From Bryobacterales bacterium (GTDB lineage Bacteria; Acidobacteriota; Terriglobia; Bryobacterales; UBA6623), in contig OZ251486.1 in assembly GCA_965242705.1 (NCBI GenBank), positions 2,412,255 through 2,476,254 on the forward strand: DNA of 64,000 nucleotides. Reading direction: 5' to 3'. The notes beneath the pieces are model-generated. The model ran no database searches. It was not told the origin of the DNA and saw only the letters and a list, made by a program, of their open reading frames with translations. Below, one piece after another: positions 4,024-34,775 of the stretch. Positions within the stretch are counted from its first letter, which is position 1. Each line of letters begins with the position of its first letter. The position numbers were made by a program, and so were the translations under genes.

Positions 4024-4130
4024 CCGCGACTCTTGACCCCCGACCCGTGACCGCCGCGCGAAGCGCGGCCCGACCCGCGACTCTTGACCCGTGACCCGCC
4101 GACTCGCGACCGCCGCGCAAAGCGCGGCCC
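4024..4130 (+). repeat. heptamer (GACCCGC/GACTCGT-like) tandem array plus GC hairpin, REP-like, two units
   Basis: 'cccgcgactcttgacccccgacccgtgaccgccgcgcgaagcgcggc' followed by a near copy; similar to 19322, 31232 and 51636. Confidence 0.6.
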
Positions 4131-7100
4131 TATTCGACGGCAATGGTGACGCCGGGCTGGCTTCTGGCGCCGCCGACTTCGAGATACACTTCCAGCGCGT
4201 CGTTGGGCGCAATGCCCGCCGGAACCCGCGCCAGGATTACGTTGACTCCCACCAGCGACGGCGCTCCGCCCGCGAACAGCACTTCCTCCGCCGCCAAGGG
4301 CTGCGACCCAAGCCATACCCGCACCGACGCCGCCGCATGCCGCAGCACCGCTGCGCCGCCCGCCTCGCCGTCCGCCGGCGCAGGCTCCAGCGCGCCCAGG
4401 CCCGTCGCGTAAATCTCCAGCACGTCCCCCGCTCTCGCCGGTCGCGCCGACCCCTCGCCGTAGCCCCGCGGCGCCGCCAACTCGGCCGTCCCCGCAAATA
4501 CGATCGAGCCCTGACCCGCTCCCGCGCCCTCTACCGTGAACACGCCCGGCGCTTGCGCCGCCGCGTGGAAAAAGCGCGCGTAGCTCACGCCCTGCTCCGT
4601 CTCCACCTCCACCGAAGCCAACGCCGTGCGCGCGCCCTCGGGCAGCAGACCAGACGGCAACTGCGCCGCGATGCGCCCCGACTCCACCGTAAACAGCGGC
4701 GCCGCCTGCCCGTCAATCATCACCCGCGTCCCGCCCAGGCTGCGCGGCAGCGGCAAGCCCTCCGCCGAAGCCGACCCATCGGCGGCAAAGTTCCGCCCGC
4801 GGATCTCCACTACCGACCCGGGCGCCACCGGCAGAATGCGCGGCCCGAACAGCCCCGGCTCCCCGTAGGCGCTCTGCCGCGCCGCGTTGAGCACTCCGCC
4901 GTTCTCCGTCACCGCCGGCCCCGTCGGCGGCGGAACCTCCAGCACGATGCGAATCGTCGCCGTCAGCCGCCCGTTGGAGCGGATGTACAGCCGTCCGTTG
5001 TGGGTTCCCTCGCGCAGCCCCAGCGGGTTGACCGTCACCTGCAGCGCCACCGTCTCGCCCTGCTCCAGACGGCCCCGCCACTGCGCCGCGCCGCTTGCCG
5101 CCCGCGTGACTTCGATCCAGCGCGCGCTGGGTATGGCCTGATAGTCCACTGCGCCGTTTTCGGCGCGCAGCGTCAGCGTCTTCGACGTCGGCTCGGCGGC
5201 TTCCGCCGGCTCGAACGTCAACTCCCCTACGCCGCCCACCGGCTGCGCCTCGGGCTCCGGCTGCCCCGTTCCCGAGCTCGTCCCCGAACCTGAGCCTGAC
5301 CCCGGATCCGTTCCCGGATCCGTTCCAGTCCCCGGGGGCGGATCCGGATCCGGAGTCGGCGGCATACCCGCCGTCAGCTTGCGCACGCGGTGGTTGTTTC
5401 TATCGGCCACGTAGAGATTGCCCGACGAGTCCACCGCTACGCCGAAGGGCAGATTGAGCGCCGCCGATGCCGCCGCCCCGCCGTCCCCGGAAAATCCTGC
5501 GCTCGCGCCGGCGATCGTGGAGATGGTCCCCGACGTGCCCACCCTGCGGATGCGGTGGTTGCCCGTATCGGAGATATACACGTTGCCCGCGGAGTCCACC
5601 GCTACGCCGTTGGGATCGTTCAACCTCGCCGATGCCGCCGCCCCGCCGTCGCCCGTGCTCCCCGAAGTTCCCGTGCCGGCGAAGGCCGCTATGTTGCCCG
5701 TGGAAGCATCCACCCGGCGCACGCGGTGGTTGCCCGCATCGGCGATGTAAACGTTGCCCGATGAATCCACCGCCACGCCGATGGGAGTATTCAACGCCGC
5801 CGAAGACGCCGCCCCGCCGTCGCCCGTGTTCCCTCCGCTTCCCGTGCCGGCGAAGGTCGAAATGGTCCCCGACGTATTCACCATGCGGACCTTGTGGTTG
5901 ATCGTGTCGGCGATGTAAACGTTGCCCGACGAGTCCACCGCCGCGCTGTTGGGAAAACTCAACGTCGCCGCCGTCGCCGCGGCGCCGTCGCCCGTGCTGC
6001 CCGCCGTTCCCGTGCCGGCGAAGGCCGCAATGTTCCCCGACGTATCCACCCGGCGGACGCGCTGATTGCCCGTGTCGACGATATAGACGTTGCCCGATGA
6101 ATCCACCGCCACGCCGCGGGGAGCGGTCAACGTCGCCGAGGTCGCCGCGGCGCCGTCGCCCGTGTTCCCCGCCGTCCCCGTGCCGGCGAAGGTCGTGATA
6201 TTGCCCGTGGTGGCATCCACCCGGCGCACGCGGTTGCCGGCCGTGTCGGCGATATAGACGTTGCCCGATGCGTCCGCCGCCGCGCCGTAGGGCGTGTTCA
6301 ACGACGACGAAGCCGCCGCCCCGCCGTCCCCCACGGCCGTCGGCCCCAGCCCGGCGATGGTCGAAATGTTCCCCGACGTATCTATCTTGCGTACGCGGTT
6401 GCCGCCCGTTTCGCCGATGTAGATGTTGTCCGACGAGTCCAATATCAGCTTTTCGGGGCTGTTCAACGTCGCCGAAGACGCCGCCCCGCCGTCGCCCGTG
6501 CTCGACGCGGTTCCCGTGCCGGCGAAGGTCGTGATATTCCCCGACGTAGTCACCCGGCGGATGCGGTGGTTGCCCGAATCGGCGATGTAAACGTTGCCCG
6601 ACGAGTCCACCGCCGCGTCGCGGGGGCTGCTCAACTGCGCCGAAGTCGCCGCGAATCCGTCGCCGGAGAAGCCGCCGCCGAGCGGGTACGTACCCGCAAA
6701 GCGGGAGCCGGTCCCTGAGCTGGTCCGCTTGAAAACCCTGTTGCCGTCCTGACTGGCGGCCCAGAGGTTGCCCGACGAGTCCACGCCTACGCCCTCCACG
6801 GCGCTCAACGAAATCGTACTTACCGTCGGACCAAAAATGGTCGAGACTTGCCCCGTGGCAGCGGTCAGCAGGCGCACGATGCTGTTGGCTCGATCGGCGA
6901 TATAGAGGTTGTTCGACGAGTCCGCCGCCACGTCGTACATCCAGGTGAACGACGCCGACGCGCGGGCGCCGTTGGTGGAGCCGGCGCCCCCCGTGCCGGC
7001 GTAAGTGGAGATATTGCCCGTGGAAATGGTCACCTTGCGGATGCGGCGGTTGCCCGTATCGGCGATGAAAACGTCGCCGTTCGAGTCCACGGCCACGCCG

Positions 7101-7459
7101 TAGGGTTCTTCCAACTGCGCCGAAGTCGCCGCGCCGCCGTCGCCGCTGAAGCCCGAGCTGCCCGTGCCGGCGAAGACCGAAGAGTTTTTGGTGGCGCCGT
7201 CGATGCGGATGACGCGGTGGTTGTTCACGTCGCCGACGTAGACGTTGCCGTTGGAGTCCACGGCCACGCCGCGGGGGGCGTTCAACGTCATCAGAACCGC
7301 CGTTCCGCCGCCTCCGGCGAACGTGTCGATGGTGTACGTTTGCGCCGGGGCGCGCTGCGCGCCCCAGTGGAGAGCGAACGCCGCCAACGCAGCGGCGGCC
7401 AGGCGGCCAAGCCGCTTGGCGGTCACGGGCCGCGCGCCGCGAGTCGTTTCACGGGTCAC
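4130..7459 (-). CDS. secreted NHL-repeat (teneurin-like beta-propeller) protein with Pro/Gly linker and C-terminal TIGR03437-like domain, paralog 1
   Basis: Signal-peptide-like N-terminus ending '...RAPAQ'; about 12 'P.GVAVDSSGNVYIADTGNHRVRRV' repeats with 'GDGGAA' spacers; C-terminal 'VLNAA...VAPGSVVEIRG...QAPGVF...PARAGDVLEIYATGLG...SQPGVTIAVE'. GTG start preceded by GGAGG. Confidence 0.88.
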   Translation of the reverse strand: MTRETTRGARPVTAKRLGRLAAAALAAFALHWGAQRAPAQTYTIDTFAGGGGTAVLMTLNAPRGVAVDSNGNVYVGDVNNHRVIRIDGATKNSSVFAGTGSSGFSGDGGAATSAQLEEPYGVAVDSNGDVFIADTGNRRIRKVTISTGNISTYAGTGGAGSTNGARASASFTWMYDVAADSSNNLYIADRANSIVRLLTAATGQVSTIFGPTVSTISLSAVEGVGVDSSGNLWAASQDGNRVFKRTSSGTGSRFAGTYPLGGGFSGDGFAATSAQLSSPRDAAVDSSGNVYIADSGNHRIRRVTTSGNITTFAGTGTASSTGDGGAASSATLNSPEKLILDSSDNIYIGETGGNRVRKIDTSGNISTIAGLGPTAVGDGGAAASSSLNTPYGAAADASGNVYIADTAGNRVRRVDATTGNITTFAGTGTAGNTGDGAAATSATLTAPRGVAVDSSGNVYIVDTGNQRVRRVDTSGNIAAFAGTGTAGSTGDGAAATAATLSFPNSAAVDSSGNVYIADTINHKVRMVNTSGTISTFAGTGSGGNTGDGGAASSAALNTPIGVAVDSSGNVYIADAGNHRVRRVDASTGNIAAFAGTGTSGSTGDGGAAASARLNDPNGVAVDSAGNVYISDTGNHRIRRVGTSGTISTIAGASAGFSGDGGAAASAALNLPFGVAVDSSGNLYVADRNNHRVRKLTAGMPPTPDPDPPPGTGTDPGTDPGSGSGSGTSSGTGQPEPEAQPVGGVGELTFEPAEAAEPTSKTLTLRAENGAVDYQAIPSARWIEVTRAASGAAQWRGRLEQGETVALQVTVNPLGLREGTHNGRLYIRSNGRLTATIRIVLEVPPPTGPAVTENGGVLNAARQSAYGEPGLFGPRILPVAPGSVVEIRGRNFAADGSASAEGLPLPRSLGGTRVMIDGQAAPLFTVESGRIAAQLPSGLLPEGARTALASVEVETEQGVSYARFFHAAAQAPGVFTVEGAGAGQGSIVFAGTAELAAPRGYGEGSARPARAGDVLEIYATGLGALEPAPADGEAGGAAVLRHAAASVRVWLGSQPLAAEEVLFAGGAPSLVGVNVILARVPAGIAPNDALEVYLEVGGARSQPGVTIAVE

Positions 7460-7460
7460 G

Positions 7461-7484
7461 GCCGCGCCTCCAGGCAGGCGCGGC
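7461..7484 (-). promoter_or_regulatory. hairpin sequestering the SD (GGAGG) of NHL paralog 1
   Basis: mRNA reads GCCGCGCCT-GCCTGG-AGGCGCGGC-C-GTG: a perfect 9-bp stem with the SD in the loop and 3' arm; conserved at 34631-34654. Confidence 0.7.
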
Positions 7485-7499
7485 GGCGCGCAGTTTGCC

Positions 7500-7562
7500 C
7501 TACCTGAATTGCGGGGGGGGGGGGGGGGGGGGGGTAAAACGGTGCATGCCGACGTTGCTCAT
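7500..7562 (-). CDS. putative leader peptide (uORF) MSNVGMHRFTPPPPPPPQFR containing a C22 tract
   Basis: GGAG 8 nt upstream of ATG 7562; stop TAG at 7500-7502; homologous, same-frame uORF at 34670-34720. Confidence 0.55.
   Translation of the reverse strand: MSNVGMHRFTPPPPPPPQFR
7513..7534. repeat. G22 homopolymer (C22 on the coding strand)
   Basis: Direct count of 22 consecutive G. Confidence 0.95.
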
Positions 7563-7588
7563 CAGACGGTCTCCAAACTGAAACCGAC

Positions 7589-7617
7589 AATATAGCATCC
7601 CGCAGAAAAATTCACAA
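7589..7617 (-). promoter_or_regulatory. sigma70-type promoter with extended -10 for NHL paralog 1
   Basis: Minus strand TTGTGA-N17-TATATT with TG at the extended -10 position; spacing and -10 conserved in the paralog (34747-34775). Confidence 0.7.
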
Positions 7618-7689
7618 CGCAACATCGCCATAAGAAATGTTTTTTCGGCGGCGCGGCCTTTTTCAGCATATGCAGAGGCCGCAACTCCC

Positions 7690-7724
7690 GCGCCCCTGCC
7701 TTCAGGCTCATTCTTCGATTGGAA
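7690..7724 (+). mobile_element. solo IS terminal-repeat remnant (same family as 41008-41245)
   Basis: 'TTCAGGCTCATTCTTCGATTGGAA' matches 41227-41245 and is an imperfect inverted match to 41010-41032; absent from the paralogous region at ~34800. Confidence 0.45.
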
Positions 7725-7750
7725 CAGCGGCGCCCGCTTGTTCCGATCTT

Positions 7751-7838
7751 CCCTAACCCCCAACCCCTAACCCCTGATCCCTGCCGCGCCGCTTTGCGGC
7801 GCGGCCCCCCTAACCCCTGCCGCGCCGCTCCGCGGCGC
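7751..7838. repeat. CCCTAAC-like heptamers plus GCCGCGCCGC-N3-GCGGCGCGGC hairpin (two units); possible terminator or REP
   Basis: Seen directly; same element at 34813-34853. Confidence 0.65.
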
Positions 7839-9036
7839 GAGCATAATGCCGGCGCAGCAGGTCTTTCCCGTAATCGTTGCCGTTGGGTGTGCGCACCACG
7901 CTGTGGATGTGCCTGCGCGAGGGATCCCATCCGTCGAGAGCTATCGGCCCCTGATGGTCGAACTCGATCAGCACGACCGGACTGTGTACCCGGTAATAGT
8001 AAACGCCCGCCGGACCGGTGGAGCCGATCCAGCCGAAATAGGTGTCGTCGAGATGCCCGCGCACCTCGCCCAAGCGAATCTTGGCGTGCCCGGGCTTCAT
8101 GTTGTTGACGAACTCGGCAACGATATCCATCAGCAATTCGCGCTGCAGCTCGGTCAGATCGGTTGCGCGGATGCCCGCGTAGTCCAGCACCAGATTGTCG
8201 CGGAACGCCTCGGCCACATTGTTGACCCGCTGCTTGCCCTCCCGGCCCCCGATGATCGCCTTGTCCCGCTGCTCCGCGCTGAGCGAATCCATCAGCGCCG
8301 CGCCCTTCGCCTGCTCGTCCTGCATCACCGCGGCGCCCTGGAACTTCCCGGAATCGGCCACCACCGGCTCCGAGCCCATGAATACCGGCGTCATCACCAC
8401 CTGATCGCCCAAAACGAAGTAGTTGACGATCACGTGATGCCCCTCGAACTGCCAGCCCCACGGCTCGGACGCCGACGGCTCGCCCATGATGGTCAGGTAA
8501 TAGAGCCATTCCCCGTATTCCGCGAAGTTGTCGGTCAACTCGCCCAGCGTGTGGTTCAGGCGCATGATGTCCCGCGTCTTGCGGTAACCGCTCGCGCTGA
8601 GGCCGCTGCGCACGACCTTGAGCGCCAGCTTGCGCTGCTTCGCCGACAGCTTGTCCAGCCGGACGCCCTGCTGCCAGTAGAAATGCCAATTGCCCCACTT
8701 CTGCCATTCCGGGTCATCCACCGGATAAACCGTCTGCGCCTTTTCCTCCGCGCTGAGGCCGGCCAGAAACTCCTGCGCGGCGGCCCGCGTCGGCGCGGTC
8801 GAAACTCCGGTCGGCTCGATCGAAAACAACCCCGAAAGCGGACTGCCGTTCGTCGTGACGCCCACCCATTTCTCGGCAAGCTGGCGCTCCTCGTCCTCCC
8901 GCGCGCGCTGCATGGGGCCGCCGCCTCTCTTGCCCGCCGCGCCGCGCTTGCCCCCCTGCGAAAACGCCGGCCGGTCGATGAAGGCGAAAACCGCCAGCAG
9001 ACAGAAACAACCGAAAATGCAAACTCGCTTGAGCAT
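7810..9036 (-). CDS. DUF3500 domain-containing exported protein
   Basis: 'EPWGWQFEGHH...NYFVLGDQVVMTPVFMGSEP', 'YYRVHSPVVLIEFDHQ', 'HIHSVVRTPNGNDYGKDLL'; signal-like N-terminus from ATG 9036. TATACT lies 7 nt upstream, so the transcript may be leaderless. Confidence 0.8.
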   Translation of the reverse strand: MLKRVCIFGCFCLLAVFAFIDRPAFSQGGKRGAAGKRGGGPMQRAREDEERQLAEKWVGVTTNGSPLSGLFSIEPTGVSTAPTRAAAQEFLAGLSAEEKAQTVYPVDDPEWQKWGNWHFYWQQGVRLDKLSAKQRKLALKVVRSGLSASGYRKTRDIMRLNHTLGELTDNFAEYGEWLYYLTIMGEPSASEPWGWQFEGHHVIVNYFVLGDQVVMTPVFMGSEPVVADSGKFQGAAVMQDEQAKGAALMDSLSAEQRDKAIIGGREGKQRVNNVAEAFRDNLVLDYAGIRATDLTELQRELLMDIVAEFVNNMKPGHAKIRLGEVRGHLDDTYFGWIGSTGPAGVYYYRVHSPVVLIEFDHQGPIALDGWDPSRRHIHSVVRTPNGNDYGKDLLRRHYARAAERRGRG

Positions 9037-9327
9037 GACTGCAAGTATAATACGCGCGCCCCATCGCATAGAAATTTTCGATAGGAACAATTGCCGGGGA
9101 CTTGAACGCCGCGGTTCGTAGATGATATTCCTGTAAGGCTTGAGCCGTATTTCTCGGCCGGCCGACAAAAAAATGGATGCCGCCGACTGACGGATTGCGT
9201 ATAATCGGGGTTTCCCAATGCCTGCCGACGGACTGGAGAACGCCGGCCGCCCGGCTGCGCGCCGAAATCTCGACGACCGCACTCGACGACCTCATCGGCA
9301 GGCTCGATTTTGCAGAAGGAGTGAAAC

Positions 9328-31276: not shown

Positions 31277-31324
31277 CCGCTATTCCACGGTGCCCTTATT
31301 CCACGGCGCCGCTATTCCACGGCA
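31277..31324. repeat. 3 x 16-bp imperfect tandem repeat copying the last codons and stop of NHL paralog 2
   Basis: CCGCTATTCCACGG(T/C)G-type units, reading GTG-GAA-TAG/TAA on the minus strand. Confidence 0.8.
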
Positions 31325-34300
31325 ATGGTGACGCCGGGCTGGCTTCTGGCGCCGCCCACTTCGAGATACACTTCCAGCGCGTCGTTCGGCGCTATGCCCG
31401 CCGGAACCCGTGCCAGGATTACGTTGACGCCCACCAGCGACGGCGCTCCGCCCGCGAACAGCACGTCCTCCGCCGCCAAAGGCTGCGACCCCAGCCACAC
31501 CCGCACCGCCACAGCAGCATGCCGCAGCACCGCTGCGCCCCCCGCCTCGCCGTCCGACGGCGCAGGCTCCAGCGCGCCCAAGCCCGTCGCGTAGATCTCC
31601 AGCACGTCCCCCGCTCTCGCCGGTCGCGCCGCCCCCTCGCCGTAGCCCCGCGGCGCCGCCAACTCGGCCGTCCCCGCAAATACGATCGATCCCTGTCCCG
31701 CTCCCGCGCCCTCTACCGTGAACACGCCCGGCGCTTGCGCCGCCGCGTGGAAAAAGCGCGCGTAGCTCACGCCCTGCTCCGTCTCCACCTCCACCGAAGC
31801 CAACGCCGTGCGAGCGCCCTCGGGCAGCAGACCCGACGGCAACTGCGCCGCGATGCGCCCCGACTCCACCGTAAACAGCGGCGCCGCCTGCCCCTCGATC
31901 AGCACCCGCGTCCCGCCCAGGCTCCGCGGCAGCGGCAAGCCCTCCGCCGAAGCCGTCCCATCGGCGGCCAAGTTCCGCCCGCGGATCTCCACTACCGACC
32001 CGGGCGCCACCGGCAGAATGCGCGGCCCGAACAGCCCGGGCTCCCCGTAGGCGCTCTGCCGCGCCGCGTTGAGCACTCCGCCGTTCTCCGTCACGTCCGG
32101 CCCCGTCGGCGGCGGAACCTCCAGCACGATGCGGATCGTCGCCGTCAGCCGACCGTTGGAGCGGATGTACAGCCGTCCGTTGTGGGTTCCCTCGCGCAGC
32201 CCCAGCGGGTTGACCGTCACCTGCAGCGCCACCGTCTCGCCCTGCTCCAGACGCCCCCGCCACTGAGCCGCGCCGCCTTCCGCCCGCGTGACCTCGATCC
32301 AGCGCGCGCTGGGTATGGCTTGGTAGTCCACCGCGCCGTTTTCGGCGCGCAGCGTCAGCGTCTTCGACGTCGGCTCGGAATCTTCCGCCGGCTCGAACGT
32401 CAACTCCGTGACGCCGCCCACCGGCTGCGCCTCGGGCTCCGGCTGTCCCGAACCCGACCCTGTATCCGTTCCCGGCTCCGTCGGCTCATCCGGCTGCAGC
32501 GTCAGCATCAGCTTGCGCACGCGGTGGTTGTTGCTATCGGCGACGTAGATGTTGCCTGACGAGTCCGCCGCCACGCCGTAGGGTCGGTTGAGCTGCGCCG
32601 AAGCCGCCAGGCCCCCGTCCCCGCTGAAGCCCGCCGTCCCCGCCCCGGCGATGGTCTCGATGCTCCCCGATGTATCCACCCGGCGGATGCGGTTGTTGGA
32701 ATAATCGGCGATATACAGGTTGCCCGCAGCGTCCAGAGTCAGGCCGCGGGGGAAGTTGAGCCGCGCCGCCGTCGCCAAGCCGCCGTCGCCGCTCGAGCCG
32801 GAAGTCCCCGTTCCCGCGACGGTCGAGATATTCCCCGTGGAAGCATCGATCTTGCGAATGCGCTGGCCGAACGTATCGCTGATATAGACGTTGCCCGACG
32901 AGTCCACGGCTATGCCCGCGGGGTTGTTCACCTGCGCCGCCGTCGCCAAGCCGCCGTCCCCGCTCGAGCTGGAACCCCCCATGCCCGCGATAGTCTCGAT
33001 GTTGCCCGTGGAAACCGTCACCTTGCGGATGCGGTTGTTCGTCGAGTCCGCGATATAAACGTCGCCCGACGAGTCCACCGCTACGGCTTCGGGGCTGCTC
33101 AACGTCGCCGAGGTCGCCGCCCCGCCGTCGCCGGTGAACCCTGCCGTTCCCGTGCCCGCAAGGGCGGCGATATTGCCCGTGGAAACCGTCACCTTGCGGA
33201 TGCGGTTGTTGCCCGCATCGGCGATATAGACGTTGCCGTCGGAGTCCAGAGCCACGCCGCGGGGAAGGCTCAACGTCGCCGAGGTCGCCGCCGCGCCGTC
33301 GCCCGTATTCCCTGCCGTTCCCGTCCCCGCGATGGTCGAGATATTGCCCGTGGAAGCATCGATCTTGCGGATGCGGTTGTTCGTCGCATCGGCGATATAA
33401 ATGTTGCCCGCAGCGTCCGCAGCCGCGCCGCTGGGCAGATTCAACGACGCCGAAGACGCCGCCCCGCCGTCGCCGACGGCCGTCGGCCCCAGCCCGGCGA
33501 TGGTCGAAATGATCCCCGACGCGTCTATCTTGCGCACGTTGTTGGCGCCCGAATCGCCGATGTAGATGTTGCCCGCCGAGTCCACCGTCAGCTTGTCGGG
33601 TCTGCTCAACGTGGCCGAAGCCGCCGGGCCGCCGTCGCCGGTGCTCGACTGGACTCCCGTGCCGGCGATGGTCGAAATGTTGCCCGACGTATCCACCTTG
33701 CGGATGCGTTCGTTGAACGTATCGGCGATGTAAACGTTGCCCGAAGCGTCCGGCGCCACGTCGAGGGGGTTATTCACGGCCGCCGAAGTGGCCGCGCCGC
33801 CGTCGCCGGCGAAGCCGCTCGTCGCCGAGCCGGCAAAGACGGAGCTGGTCCCTGCGCTGGTCCGCTTGAAAATCCTGCTGGTGGAATTACTGGCGACCCA
33901 GACGTTGCCCGCCGCGTCCGCGCCCACGCCCTGTATCTGGCCCAAATTAACCCCACCTACCGCCGGCCCCATAATGGACGAGATGTTGCCCGTGGAAGCG
34001 GTCACCATGCGCACGCGGCTGTTGGTCAAATCGGCGATATAGACATTGTCCGACCCGTCCGTCGCCACGTCGTAAACATAGCCCATCGTCGCCGCCGTCG
34101 CCGCCCCGCCGTCGCCGCTGAAGCTTAGGGTTCCCGTGCCGGCGAAGGCGGCGATGTTGCCCGTGGAAAGGGTCACCTTGCGCACGCGGCTGTTGCCCGT
34201 ATCGGCGATGAGAACGTTGCCCGCCGAGTCCACGGCCACGCCGTAAGGTTCGTTCAACGTGGCCGAAGTGGCCGCCCCGCCGTCGCCGGCGTTGCCGGAG

Positions 34301-34629
34301 CTGCCCGTGCCGGCGAAGACCGAATAATTCTTGGTGGCGCCGTCGATGCGGATGACGCGGTGGTTGCTCACGTCGCCGATGTAGATGTTGCCGTTCGAGT
34401 CCACGGCCACGCCGCGGGGGCTGCTCAGCGTCGTCAGAACCGCCGTTCCGCCGCCCCCGGCGAACGCGTCGATGGTCCACGCGTACCTTTGCGCCGGGGC
34501 GCGCTGCGCACCCCAGTGGAGAGCGAACGCCGCCAACGCGGCGGCGGCCAAACGGCAGAGCCGCTTGGCGGTCACGGGCCGCGCGCCGCGAGTCACGGGC
34601 CGAAGACCGCGGGCCGCGAGCCGTTTCAC
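31312..34629 (-). CDS. secreted NHL-repeat protein with C-terminal TIGR03437-like domain, paralog 2
   Basis: Same architecture as 4130-7459 with a nearly identical C-terminal ~380 aa; GTG 34629 preceded by GGAGG, as in paralog 1. Confidence 0.88.
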   Translation of the reverse strand: MKRLAARGLRPVTRGARPVTAKRLCRLAAAALAAFALHWGAQRAPAQRYAWTIDAFAGGGGTAVLTTLSSPRGVAVDSNGNIYIGDVSNHRVIRIDGATKNYSVFAGTGSSGNAGDGGAATSATLNEPYGVAVDSAGNVLIADTGNSRVRKVTLSTGNIAAFAGTGTLSFSGDGGAATAATMGYVYDVATDGSDNVYIADLTNSRVRMVTASTGNISSIMGPAVGGVNLGQIQGVGADAAGNVWVASNSTSRIFKRTSAGTSSVFAGSATSGFAGDGGAATSAAVNNPLDVAPDASGNVYIADTFNERIRKVDTSGNISTIAGTGVQSSTGDGGPAASATLSRPDKLTVDSAGNIYIGDSGANNVRKIDASGIISTIAGLGPTAVGDGGAASSASLNLPSGAAADAAGNIYIADATNNRIRKIDASTGNISTIAGTGTAGNTGDGAAATSATLSLPRGVALDSDGNVYIADAGNNRIRKVTVSTGNIAALAGTGTAGFTGDGGAATSATLSSPEAVAVDSSGDVYIADSTNNRIRKVTVSTGNIETIAGMGGSSSSGDGGLATAAQVNNPAGIAVDSSGNVYISDTFGQRIRKIDASTGNISTVAGTGTSGSSGDGGLATAARLNFPRGLTLDAAGNLYIADYSNNRIRRVDTSGSIETIAGAGTAGFSGDGGLAASAQLNRPYGVAADSSGNIYVADSNNHRVRKLMLTLQPDEPTEPGTDTGSGSGQPEPEAQPVGGVTELTFEPAEDSEPTSKTLTLRAENGAVDYQAIPSARWIEVTRAEGGAAQWRGRLEQGETVALQVTVNPLGLREGTHNGRLYIRSNGRLTATIRIVLEVPPPTGPDVTENGGVLNAARQSAYGEPGLFGPRILPVAPGSVVEIRGRNLAADGTASAEGLPLPRSLGGTRVLIEGQAAPLFTVESGRIAAQLPSGLLPEGARTALASVEVETEQGVSYARFFHAAAQAPGVFTVEGAGAGQGSIVFAGTAELAAPRGYGEGAARPARAGDVLEIYATGLGALEPAPSDGEAGGAAVLRHAAVAVRVWLGSQPLAAEDVLFAGGAPSLVGVNVILARVPAGIAPNDALEVYLEVGGARSQPGVTIAVE

Positions 34630-34630
34630 G

Positions 34631-34654
34631 GCCGCGCCTCCCGGCAGGCGCGGC
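34631..34654 (-). promoter_or_regulatory. hairpin sequestering the SD of NHL paralog 2
   Basis: GCCGCGCCT-GCCGGG-AGGCGCGGC-C-GTG; stem identical to paralog 1, one loop change. Confidence 0.7.
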
Positions 34655-34669
34655 GGCGCGCAGTTTGCC

Positions 34670-34720
34670 CTACCTGAATTTGCGGGGGGGGGTAAAACGG
34701 GACATGCCAACGTTGCTCAT
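34670..34720 (-). CDS. putative leader peptide (uORF) MSNVGMSRFTPPRKFR containing a C9 tract
   Basis: GGAG 8 nt upstream of ATG 34720; TAG at 34670-34672; G9 at 34684-34692. Confidence 0.55.
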   Translation of the reverse strand: MSNVGMSRFTPPRKFR

Positions 34721-34746
34721 CAGGCGATCTCCAAACTGAAACCGAC

Positions 34747-34775
34747 AATATAACATCCCGCGGAAAAAACCGCAA
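34747..34775 (-). promoter_or_regulatory. sigma70-type promoter with extended -10 for NHL paralog 2
   Basis: TTGCGG-N17-TATATT with TG extension. Confidence 0.65.

Follow-up and report, generated by a model that had tools for sequence, protein, structure and literature searches.

A poly-C leader that may control translation of thirteen NHL-repeat surface-protein genes in a Bryobacterales bacterium

A leader with a C22 tract precedes an NHL-repeat gene

We analysed a 64,000-nucleotide stretch of DNA (the window; positions 2,412,255 to 2,476,254 of contig OZ251486.1, assembly GCA_965242705.1) from an uncultured Bryobacterales-like bacterium whose genome comprises 4.98 Mb in two contigs with 65% G+C, and examined a leader in the 350 nt that separate a DUF3500 gene (7810-9282) from an open reading frame (ORF) of 1109 amino acids on the minus strand (4130-7459). 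This leader combines a predicted promoter, a short upstream ORF (uORF) that carries a run of 22 cytosines, and a hairpin laid over the start of the long ORF, and our best explanation for it, which we hold with moderate confidence, is a switch in which the frame of the uORF is read out at the hairpin. The long ORF starts with GTG at 7459, and its product matches the NHL repeat family PF01436 at 239.7 bits (cut-off 20) and the C-terminal domain TIGR03437 (Soli_cterm) at 151.3 bits (cut-off 29.05); its N-terminus resembles a signal peptide. A first-pass annotation of the window, made from the sequence alone, had described the product as an NHL surface protein.

Read along the minus strand, on which all of its elements lie, the leader begins with a predicted sigma-70-type promoter of the form TGnTATATT with a 17-nt spacer (-35 TTGTGA, 7617-7612; -10 TATATT, 7594-7589), which is the single sigma-70-like match in 7300-7900 (0.0 in 50 shuffles). 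A Shine-Dalgarno sequence (SD; GGAG, 7574-7571) stands 8 nt ahead of the uORF start codon (ATG, 7562-7560), and the uORF itself (7562-7500) has 20 codons as assembled, encoding MSNVGMHRFTPPPPPPPQFR and ending at a TAG (7502-7500). Within it lies the C22 homopolymer (7534-7513; G22 on the plus strand), which is presumed to be prone to slippage. The tract is followed by an invariant 14-nt box, AATTCAGGTAGGGC (7510-7497), that holds the TAG, the stop of frame 1, and then by a hairpin of 9 + 3 bp (7488-7457), in which a 5' arm, GCCGCGCCT (7484-7476), and a 3' arm, AGGCGCGGC (7469-7461), are separated by a 6-nt loop. The SD of the NHL gene (GGAGG, 7471-7467) is placed 7 nt ahead of the GTG, and a TGA in the +1 frame overlaps this start codon (GTGA). 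All of the elements listed in the first-pass annotation were found at the coordinates it gave when the minus-strand sequence was read. The GGAGG, which it described as enclosed by the 9-bp stem, straddles the loop and the 3' arm, and its AGG is paired in the hairpin, as is the GTG start codon.

No promoter was predicted 3' of the tract in 7300-7900, and the same interval held no terminator-like site; nor is there a U-run after the stem. A promoter-spacer model for the tract was rejected, since the one promoter predicted here is upstream of it. Scanning 7000-8200 against Rfam (E up to 1) returned two chance-level matches only, and since their scores of 21 and 17.8 bits are far below the respective gathering scores of 80 and 47, no known RNA family was assigned to the leader. 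An ORF of 381 amino acids (7562-8707) was taken as spurious, since it matches nothing in Pfam and lies partly over the DUF3500 gene, in a different frame.

Thirteen cassettes precede paralogous NHL/TIGR03437 genes

A search for the leader elsewhere in the genome, ahead of other NHL/TIGR03437 genes, had been proposed along with the first description. We found 13 such cassettes genome-wide, each preceding an NHL/TIGR03437 paralogue of 891-1110 amino acids. An initial motif search that tolerated 3 mismatches returned 222 matches, most of them random, and BLAST of the two leader halves was used instead; this recovered 10 canonical copies, and three divergent copies were added by inspecting all long tracts. 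One copy lies within the window (34627-34760, minus strand), with its -10 box TATATT, uORF ATG at 34720, C9 tract at 34692-34684, TAG at 34672-34670, hairpin and GTG at 34629, from which a paralogue of 1105 amino acids is read (31312-34629, minus strand). The short C run at 34684-34692, which the first-pass annotation had singled out as a second tract, thus sits in a copy of the same cassette.

The paralogous proteins are 70-94% identical to one another, with the exception of one copy (tract at G000 C1:3247314) that is just 45-48% identical to the others. Tract lengths in the 13 cassettes are C9, 13, 15, 18, 19, 19, 20, 20, 21, 22, 22, 22 and 22, and 8 distinct lengths occur among the 12 cassettes that are otherwise near-identical. 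The -10 box is kept in all 10 canonical cassettes, and the predicted promoter, SD and ATG are kept 5' of the tract in 12 of the 13 copies. On the other side of the tract, the following 54 nt show 91% identity per column, including the 14-nt box, which is identical in 12/12 aligned copies and recognisable as AATTCAGTAGAGGC in the most divergent copy (45% protein identity). The conservation of AATTCAGGTAGGGC goes beyond what the TAG alone requires. The GGAGG is found 7 nt before the start in 11/13 cassettes, and in the two most divergent copies the hairpin is directly followed by an ATG and a typical signal-peptide start, MKR.

The cassette marks a subset of a larger gene family, as tblastn with the NHL protein yielded about 70 clusters of homologues in the genome, 13 of them with the cassette, four more with C10-C18 close to the 5' end, and the remainder with neither. 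In the 10 canonical paralogues, some propeller segments (alignment columns 200-300 and 500-700) are only 52-66% identical, compared with 93-97% for the C-terminal 300 columns. Judged from this alignment, the family looks like a set of exposed blades diversified upon a constant anchor.

Three reading frames lead from the tract to the gene start

Depending on the number of cytosines, a ribosome translating the uORF would leave the tract in one of three frames, and the fate of each frame is laid out identically in all 13 cassettes. The frame of the NHL gene is open from tract to start (13/13), the next frame contains one TAG, which is at -43 or, in the copy that diverges most, at -49 (13/13), and the third ends at a TGA that overlaps the start codon (13/13; GTGA in 11 copies, ATGA in two). 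The short frame stops before the hairpin, 15 nt ahead of the stem at the 7500 locus, and the other two frames end within or beyond it, again in 13/13. Every cassette likewise has an upstream start codon from which the frame passes through the tract; GGAG or GAGG closely precedes it in 12, and the 13th has an ATG at -69 with no obvious SD. The length of the tract is not the only source of frame differences, as the frame is also shifted by one-base differences right after the tract (GCAATTC, GCGAATTC, GCAAATTC) and by deletions of 5 or 6 nt inside the uORF.

As assembled, four copies, including the 7459 locus, are in the TAG state, six are in the TGA state and three are fused to the gene. These natural copies correspond to the constructs with one cytosine more or less whose frames had been worked out by hand in the first-pass annotation: the +1 equivalents do end at the TGA of the GTGA and the -1 equivalents do fuse to the main ORF, and the frame arithmetic is therefore confirmed. 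The geometry and three-frame logic described there thus extend to the whole family, down to the copy with 45-48% protein identity. Its statement that the locus is currently OFF is a different matter, since it depends on an exact count of C22, and assembly of a 22-nt homopolymer gives no such guarantee.

From this layout we propose the following mechanism. The C22 run would act as a slippage-prone contingency tract within a short translated leader ORF ahead of the secreted NHL/TIGR03437 gene, whose own start (GGAGG-N7-GTG) would be locked in a hairpin of about -25 kcal/mol and would initiate poorly by itself. Gain or loss of a cytosine would shift the frame that ribosomes on the leader ORF are in when they emerge from the tract. 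In frame 1 they would stop at the TAG 15 nt before the stem, leaving the hairpin closed and expression low or OFF. In frame 2 they would cross the hairpin and stop at the TGA overlapping the GTG, where coupled re-initiation would turn the gene ON. In frame 3 they would read on into the gene, melting the hairpin and yielding an N-terminally extended product, with possible internal initiation in addition. A ribosome with the TAG (7502-7500) in its A site would, given the footprint that we assume, reach to about 7490, and the stem begins at 7484; it is reasonable to suppose, as the first-pass annotation did, that the stem stays closed in this frame. With 13 genes under the same device, a population could hold shifting combinations of variable NHL surface proteins.

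Tract length probably decides, at random, whether ribosomes open the hairpin that masks the start. What we infer from this arrangement is that the tract slips in vivo, that the leader ORF is translated, and how strongly each state is expressed.

The predicted hairpin masks the gene start at every tract length

Within the leader, it is the hairpin at the gene start that is exceptional in predicted stability. The 46-nt hairpin folds at -25.2 kcal/mol (z = -2.57), a value equalled by 1 of 200 dinucleotide shuffles, through a helix of 9 bp and three outer pairs that include the GTG. Across the 12 aligned copies, 99.2% of hairpin cells are paired, and two C-to-U changes retain G-U pairs. The most divergent copy differs in sequence, yet its predicted helix again encloses the ATG. 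Folding of the 5' untranslated region (UTR), which had been suggested as a check, placed the start codon in a paired state about 95% of the time. The leader as a whole (154 nt) has an ordinary predicted stability (z = -1.05), which 35 of 200 shuffles matched.

When the tract was varied in silico from 0 to 30 C, mean unpaired probability stayed constant (SD, 0.401; start codon, about 0.05). Since predicted accessibility is the same at every length, a one-base change could take effect only by way of the leader ORF's frame, or else at the DNA level in a manner not visible here. The frame-reading leader switch put forward in the first-pass annotation is partly supported, by its anatomy, its three-frame layout, its start hairpin, the differing tract lengths of near-identical copies and a predicted fold that does not change with length.

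The latter result separates the cassette from a known 5' UTR homopolymer. In Mycobacterium tuberculosis, a 7G variant of the espR 5' UTR alters translation through a one-base change with the mRNA level unchanged, and the part of the report available to us proposes that refolding of the UTR frees the ribosome-binding site (PMC11898584). The two systems share a homopolymer in a 5' leader, and to that extent are alike; refolding is the proposed explanation there, whereas predicted accessibility is constant over 0-30 C here. An espR-type refolding was accordingly rejected for the cassette, in which the unpaired probabilities of SD and start are the same at each length. The fold of the whole leader also suggested that CAGTTTG, close to the SD of the uORF, might pair with CAAACTG, which follows the box; this was rejected, as the downstream partner differs in five copies with no compensating change.

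Possible in-gene phase variation and the evidence from relatives

Several observations weigh against the switch as proposed, the first of which concern the hairpin. The 12 copies contain no compensatory covariation in the start hairpin, being too alike, and a competing 12-bp helix, in which AATTCAGGTAGGGC pairs with the 5' arm and loop, is 95.5% paired. The central A-U pair of this competing helix is broken in 5 of 11 distinct sequences, again with no compensatory pairs, and with none in either helix it is thermodynamics and conservation that speak for structure. The GGAGG is absent from two divergent cassettes, both with ATG starts. The assembled states (four, six and three) are indistinguishable from random and rest on homopolymer lengths that the assembly may misreport; homopolymers of about 20 nt are easily miscounted by assemblers. 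At C18-22, slippage of RNA polymerase or of the ribosome could also blur the frames. Finally, tract-spanning Logan contigs were not found in any of 4 runs, all of which break at 7504-7544, and two exact-pattern scans of metagenome contigs for the cassette gave 0 matches.

A further point on the same side comes from relatives, and it bears on a simpler explanation, in which the true start is the ATG at 7562, only the fused frame is productive, the TAG and TGA are ordinary out-of-frame stops, and the GGAGG-GTG and hairpin are incidental. At four loci in relatives (L019, L036, L147 and L151), an SD-ATG, four or five codons, poly-C and a signal peptide follow one another in a single frame, and a second start is lacking. 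This common arrangement is of the classical in-gene type and makes it more likely that here, too, the fused frame is the only productive one. In other genes of the genome studied here, four tandem GDSL-like genes among them, poly-C likewise comes within a few codons of an SD-ATG and ahead of a signal peptide or transmembrane segment, again with no second start. The cassette itself offers a frame 0 that is open in 13/13 copies, a good SD and ATG on the uORF, and, in two divergent copies, the lack of an internal SD.

Other features of the cassette speak against in-gene phase variation. The two most divergent copies open with an ATG and an MKR signal peptide right after the hairpin, the GGAGG of the 11 other copies is at the ideal 7-nt spacing, and the hairpin is placed exactly on the SD and start and is stronger than 199 of 200 shuffles. 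A start-enclosing structure is predicted in the 45%-identity copy as well, from a different sequence. Fusion would place about 35 more residues in front of an n-region that is long as it stands, leaving the hydrophobic core of the signal peptide behind an unusually long stretch. By hand count, 6 of the 18 codons from tract to GTG have A or T in third position, whereas the gene has a GC3 of 0.85; this is weak evidence against the fusion frame as ordinary coding sequence. On balance we regard classical in-gene phase variation as unlikely, though it is the strongest of the competing explanations, and continue to favour the leader-ORF switch.

Further searches of relatives, likewise proposed at the outset, did not recover the cassette. 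Its exact pattern was found in 0 of 40 relatives, comparison of the cassette DNA with 76 family genomes gave matches only to poly-C itself or to GC-rich pieces of at most 39 nt, and the regions upstream of 79 NHL-homologue loci elsewhere held no cassette, two of the 79 having a C or G run of at least 9. The nearest NHL homologues elsewhere are in Bryobacterales or Terriglobia records, the best at 49% identity.

Long tracts as such are not confined to the genome studied here, as runs of at least 13 nt occur in 18/40 relatives; the long-read Bryobacterales genomes G012 and G007 have 48 and 19 of them. In six loci, L019 and L036 (G005), L151 (G002), L147 (G078), L022 (G003) and L135 (G021), poly-C of 14-30 nt lies a few codons past an SD-ATG and before a signal peptide. 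The tracts of relatives often have TA before them and GAA(T)TT or GCA after them. In L022 and L135, a second SD and start are present beyond the tract.

Comparison with known leader and repeat systems

The closest published system is the leader-peptide repeat switch of Streptococcus gallolyticus pil1, and the proposed mechanism is accordingly less novel than the first-pass annotation implied: a leader-peptide repeat reading toward a hairpin has been published (PMC3894217). In pil1, GCAGA repeats (x 22) in the leader-peptide gene set the length of the peptide, which in its short form stops 39 bp before a hairpin terminator and gives low expression, while both shifted frames reach the hairpin and give high expression, as described in the part of the report available to us (Danne et al. 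2014, PMC3894217). The likeness to the cassette is close, in that a repeat lies in a leader ORF, which is a predicted one in the cassette, one frame stops before a hairpin (39 bp in pil1, 15 nt here) and two run into or past it. The targets are also comparable, a heterogeneously expressed surface structure in pil1 and an NHL surface protein here.

As far as that part of the report goes, the differences are as follows. The repeat is GCAGA x 22 there and a C homopolymer coding for poly-proline here. The pil1 hairpin is an intrinsic terminator, whereas the cassette hairpin has no U-tract and pairs the SD and start, so that control would be translational. In the cassette, one frame stops overlapping the start and one fuses to the gene, and the device is multiplied 13 times before a paralogous family. 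The hosts differ too, a Gram-positive pathogen there and an uncultured Bryobacterales-like bacterium here. The NHL cassette therefore shares the logic of pil1 and is not a member of the pil1 family, as its hairpin is not a terminator. Our searches of the open-access literature found nothing closer than pil1 among leader-ORF or uORF phase switches, and no report of repeat-driven phase variation in Acidobacteriota or sponge symbionts.

The output step that we propose resembles translational coupling, in which start-site hairpins are opened by upstream ribosomes and stop-start overlaps of the ATGA/GTGA type occur. As in such systems, the SD and start of the NHL gene are sequestered in a stem, and the stop of an upstream ORF overlaps the start in one frame. 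In the coupled genes that we know of, the upstream ORF has a single, fixed frame, whereas in the cassette a hypermutable tract would determine which of three is used.

The uORF also invites comparison with Salmonella mgtP, as it contains proline codons, two to seven of them among copies, and the genome encodes EF-P. We considered attenuation by translation speed, in which EF-P-dependent stalling on poly-proline, as in mgtP, or loading of Rho on poly-C would set expression and slippage would be secondary. In addition to the 2-7 consecutive prolines encoded by the uORF across copies, such a mechanism could draw on EF-P and on two Rho homologues, all encoded in the genome. Poly-C binds Rho strongly, and ribosomes that terminated early, at the TAG, would leave transcription uncoupled from translation. 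Against this, the cassettes, with tracts from C9 to C22, differ in how many proline codons they contain, and the two candidate, mutually exclusive helices lack covariation. Similar tracts within the coding regions of many other genes point to length change as the common theme. We consider attenuation improbable as the sole explanation; it could add to the leader-ORF switch rather than replace it.

Long C/G runs lie in surface, envelope and defence genes

The cassettes form part of a larger set of long homopolymers. C/G runs drop about 7-fold in number with each added base, C runs of length 5, 6, 7 and 8 numbering 2770, 392, 54 and 13, and a second mode of 47 C/G runs then appears at 11-25 nt; A and T runs end at 9. 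We grouped these 47 runs by flanking sequence and ORF context. Twelve are in NHL leaders, and ten are in the middle of genes for a polytopic membrane protein of about 686 amino acids. Four follow directly on the starts of tandem genes with a weak GDSL-like lipase match, two are in type I methylase (HsdM) genes (2866114-2867829, L128; 3469567-3471273), and one, a C22, is in the middle of an SspC defence gene (G000 C1:74790-78188, L124; PADLOC, 1244 bits). Two more are in genes for TonB-type outer-membrane barrels, and others are in an FGE-sulfatase-domain gene and an SH3-domain gene; singletons number 19 in all. Judged by these gene contexts, the 47 runs in or beside surface, envelope and defence genes look like a typical phase-variable (contingency) repertoire.

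The two HsdM copies share an identical 70-nt flank and differ in their tracts (C19 and C11), which are near the 3' end, making them candidate phase-variable methylases on sequence grounds. The membrane-protein paralogues carry poly-G of 13-22 nt about 1110 nt into the gene (G000 C1: 64500, 697111, 1457411, 1478944, 2130307, 2278983, 2281098, 2297360, 2610434 and 3393767); one is a single ORF (L122) and the others are split at the tract. The protein of about 686 amino acids had no match in Pfam, NCBIfam or PADLOC.

Phasomes are known from Campylobacter, Helicobacter, Neisseria and Haemophilus, where, in the parts of the reports available to us, many poly-G/C tracts are likewise found in surface, envelope and restriction-modification genes, lengths differ between near-identical copies and ON/OFF states depend on frame (PMC6321876, PMC5953494, PMC2823697). 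The genome studied here differs in its 65% G+C and in encoding both MutS and MutL, with MutL and two MutS-family genes present, and the cassette differs in that its tract lies in a separate leader ORF, neither in the gene nor in a promoter spacer. Campylobacter tracts are about 8-13 nt long, and those described here, mostly 13-25 nt, are much longer.

The abundance of long runs also raises the possibility that they are a mutational by-product with no switch attached, in a lineage that tolerates or generates long C/G runs and in which the GTG initiates regardless, or that they are partly artefacts of sequencing or assembly. The long runs in 18/40 relatives, some of them artefact-like at the contig ends of fragmented assemblies, are in keeping with this, as is the unreliability of exact homopolymer lengths of about 20 nt in assemblies. 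A by-product would not, however, be expected to sit at the same position in 13/13 cassettes across 45-94% protein identity, to be concentrated in surface, envelope and defence genes, or to have a bimodal length distribution. The start codon, predicted to be 95% paired, further argues against efficient independent initiation. We therefore give this explanation little credence, about as little as attenuation.

The unique DNA neighbouring the leader is also present in four runs labelled sponge metagenome and in several 2025 runs. Taking the observations together, we tentatively suggest, as a composite proposal that is more doubtful than the leader switch alone, that this sponge-metagenome bacterium has a contingency system of about 47 tracts, in which 13 NHL proteins are under a previously undescribed three-state (OFF, coupled ON, fusion) translational switch operated by a leader ORF.

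Simple-repeat phase variation is known almost wholly from host-adapted pathogens. If the tracts slip, a non-pathogenic, probably host-associated bacterium would keep a large repertoire of randomly switching surface, envelope and phage-defence genes, and stochastic surface variation like that of pathogens would be operating in a symbiont of an early-branching animal. The leader switch, if correct, would extend the mechanism of pil1, so far its one published relative, from transcription termination to translation initiation, with three outputs instead of two. In sponge symbionts, NHL-type repeat proteins are counted among the proteins discussed as 'eukaryotic-like', and random switching of such proteins would bear on the dealings of a symbiont with host cells and phages. 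The 13 natural copies, with their differing tract lengths, amount to a ready-made allelic series.

Sequences upstream of the promoter

Several cassettes share a further 100-150 nt upstream of the promoter (here 7640-7740, minus strand), which reads GGAACAAGCGGGCGCC ... TTCCAATCGAA ... CTGAAGGCAGGGG ... GAAAAAGGCCGC, and the conserved unit is thus longer than the promoter and leader. Beyond it, past the 3' end of the DUF3500 gene, a GC hairpin is adjoined by a G-rich repeat of telomere-like sequence, GGGGTTAGGGGTTGGGGGTTAGGG (7747-7776, minus strand). In contigs of two other runs, joints at this G-rich repeat skip 36-50 nt. The core of the repeat, GGGGTTAGGG, occurs 170 times in the genome.

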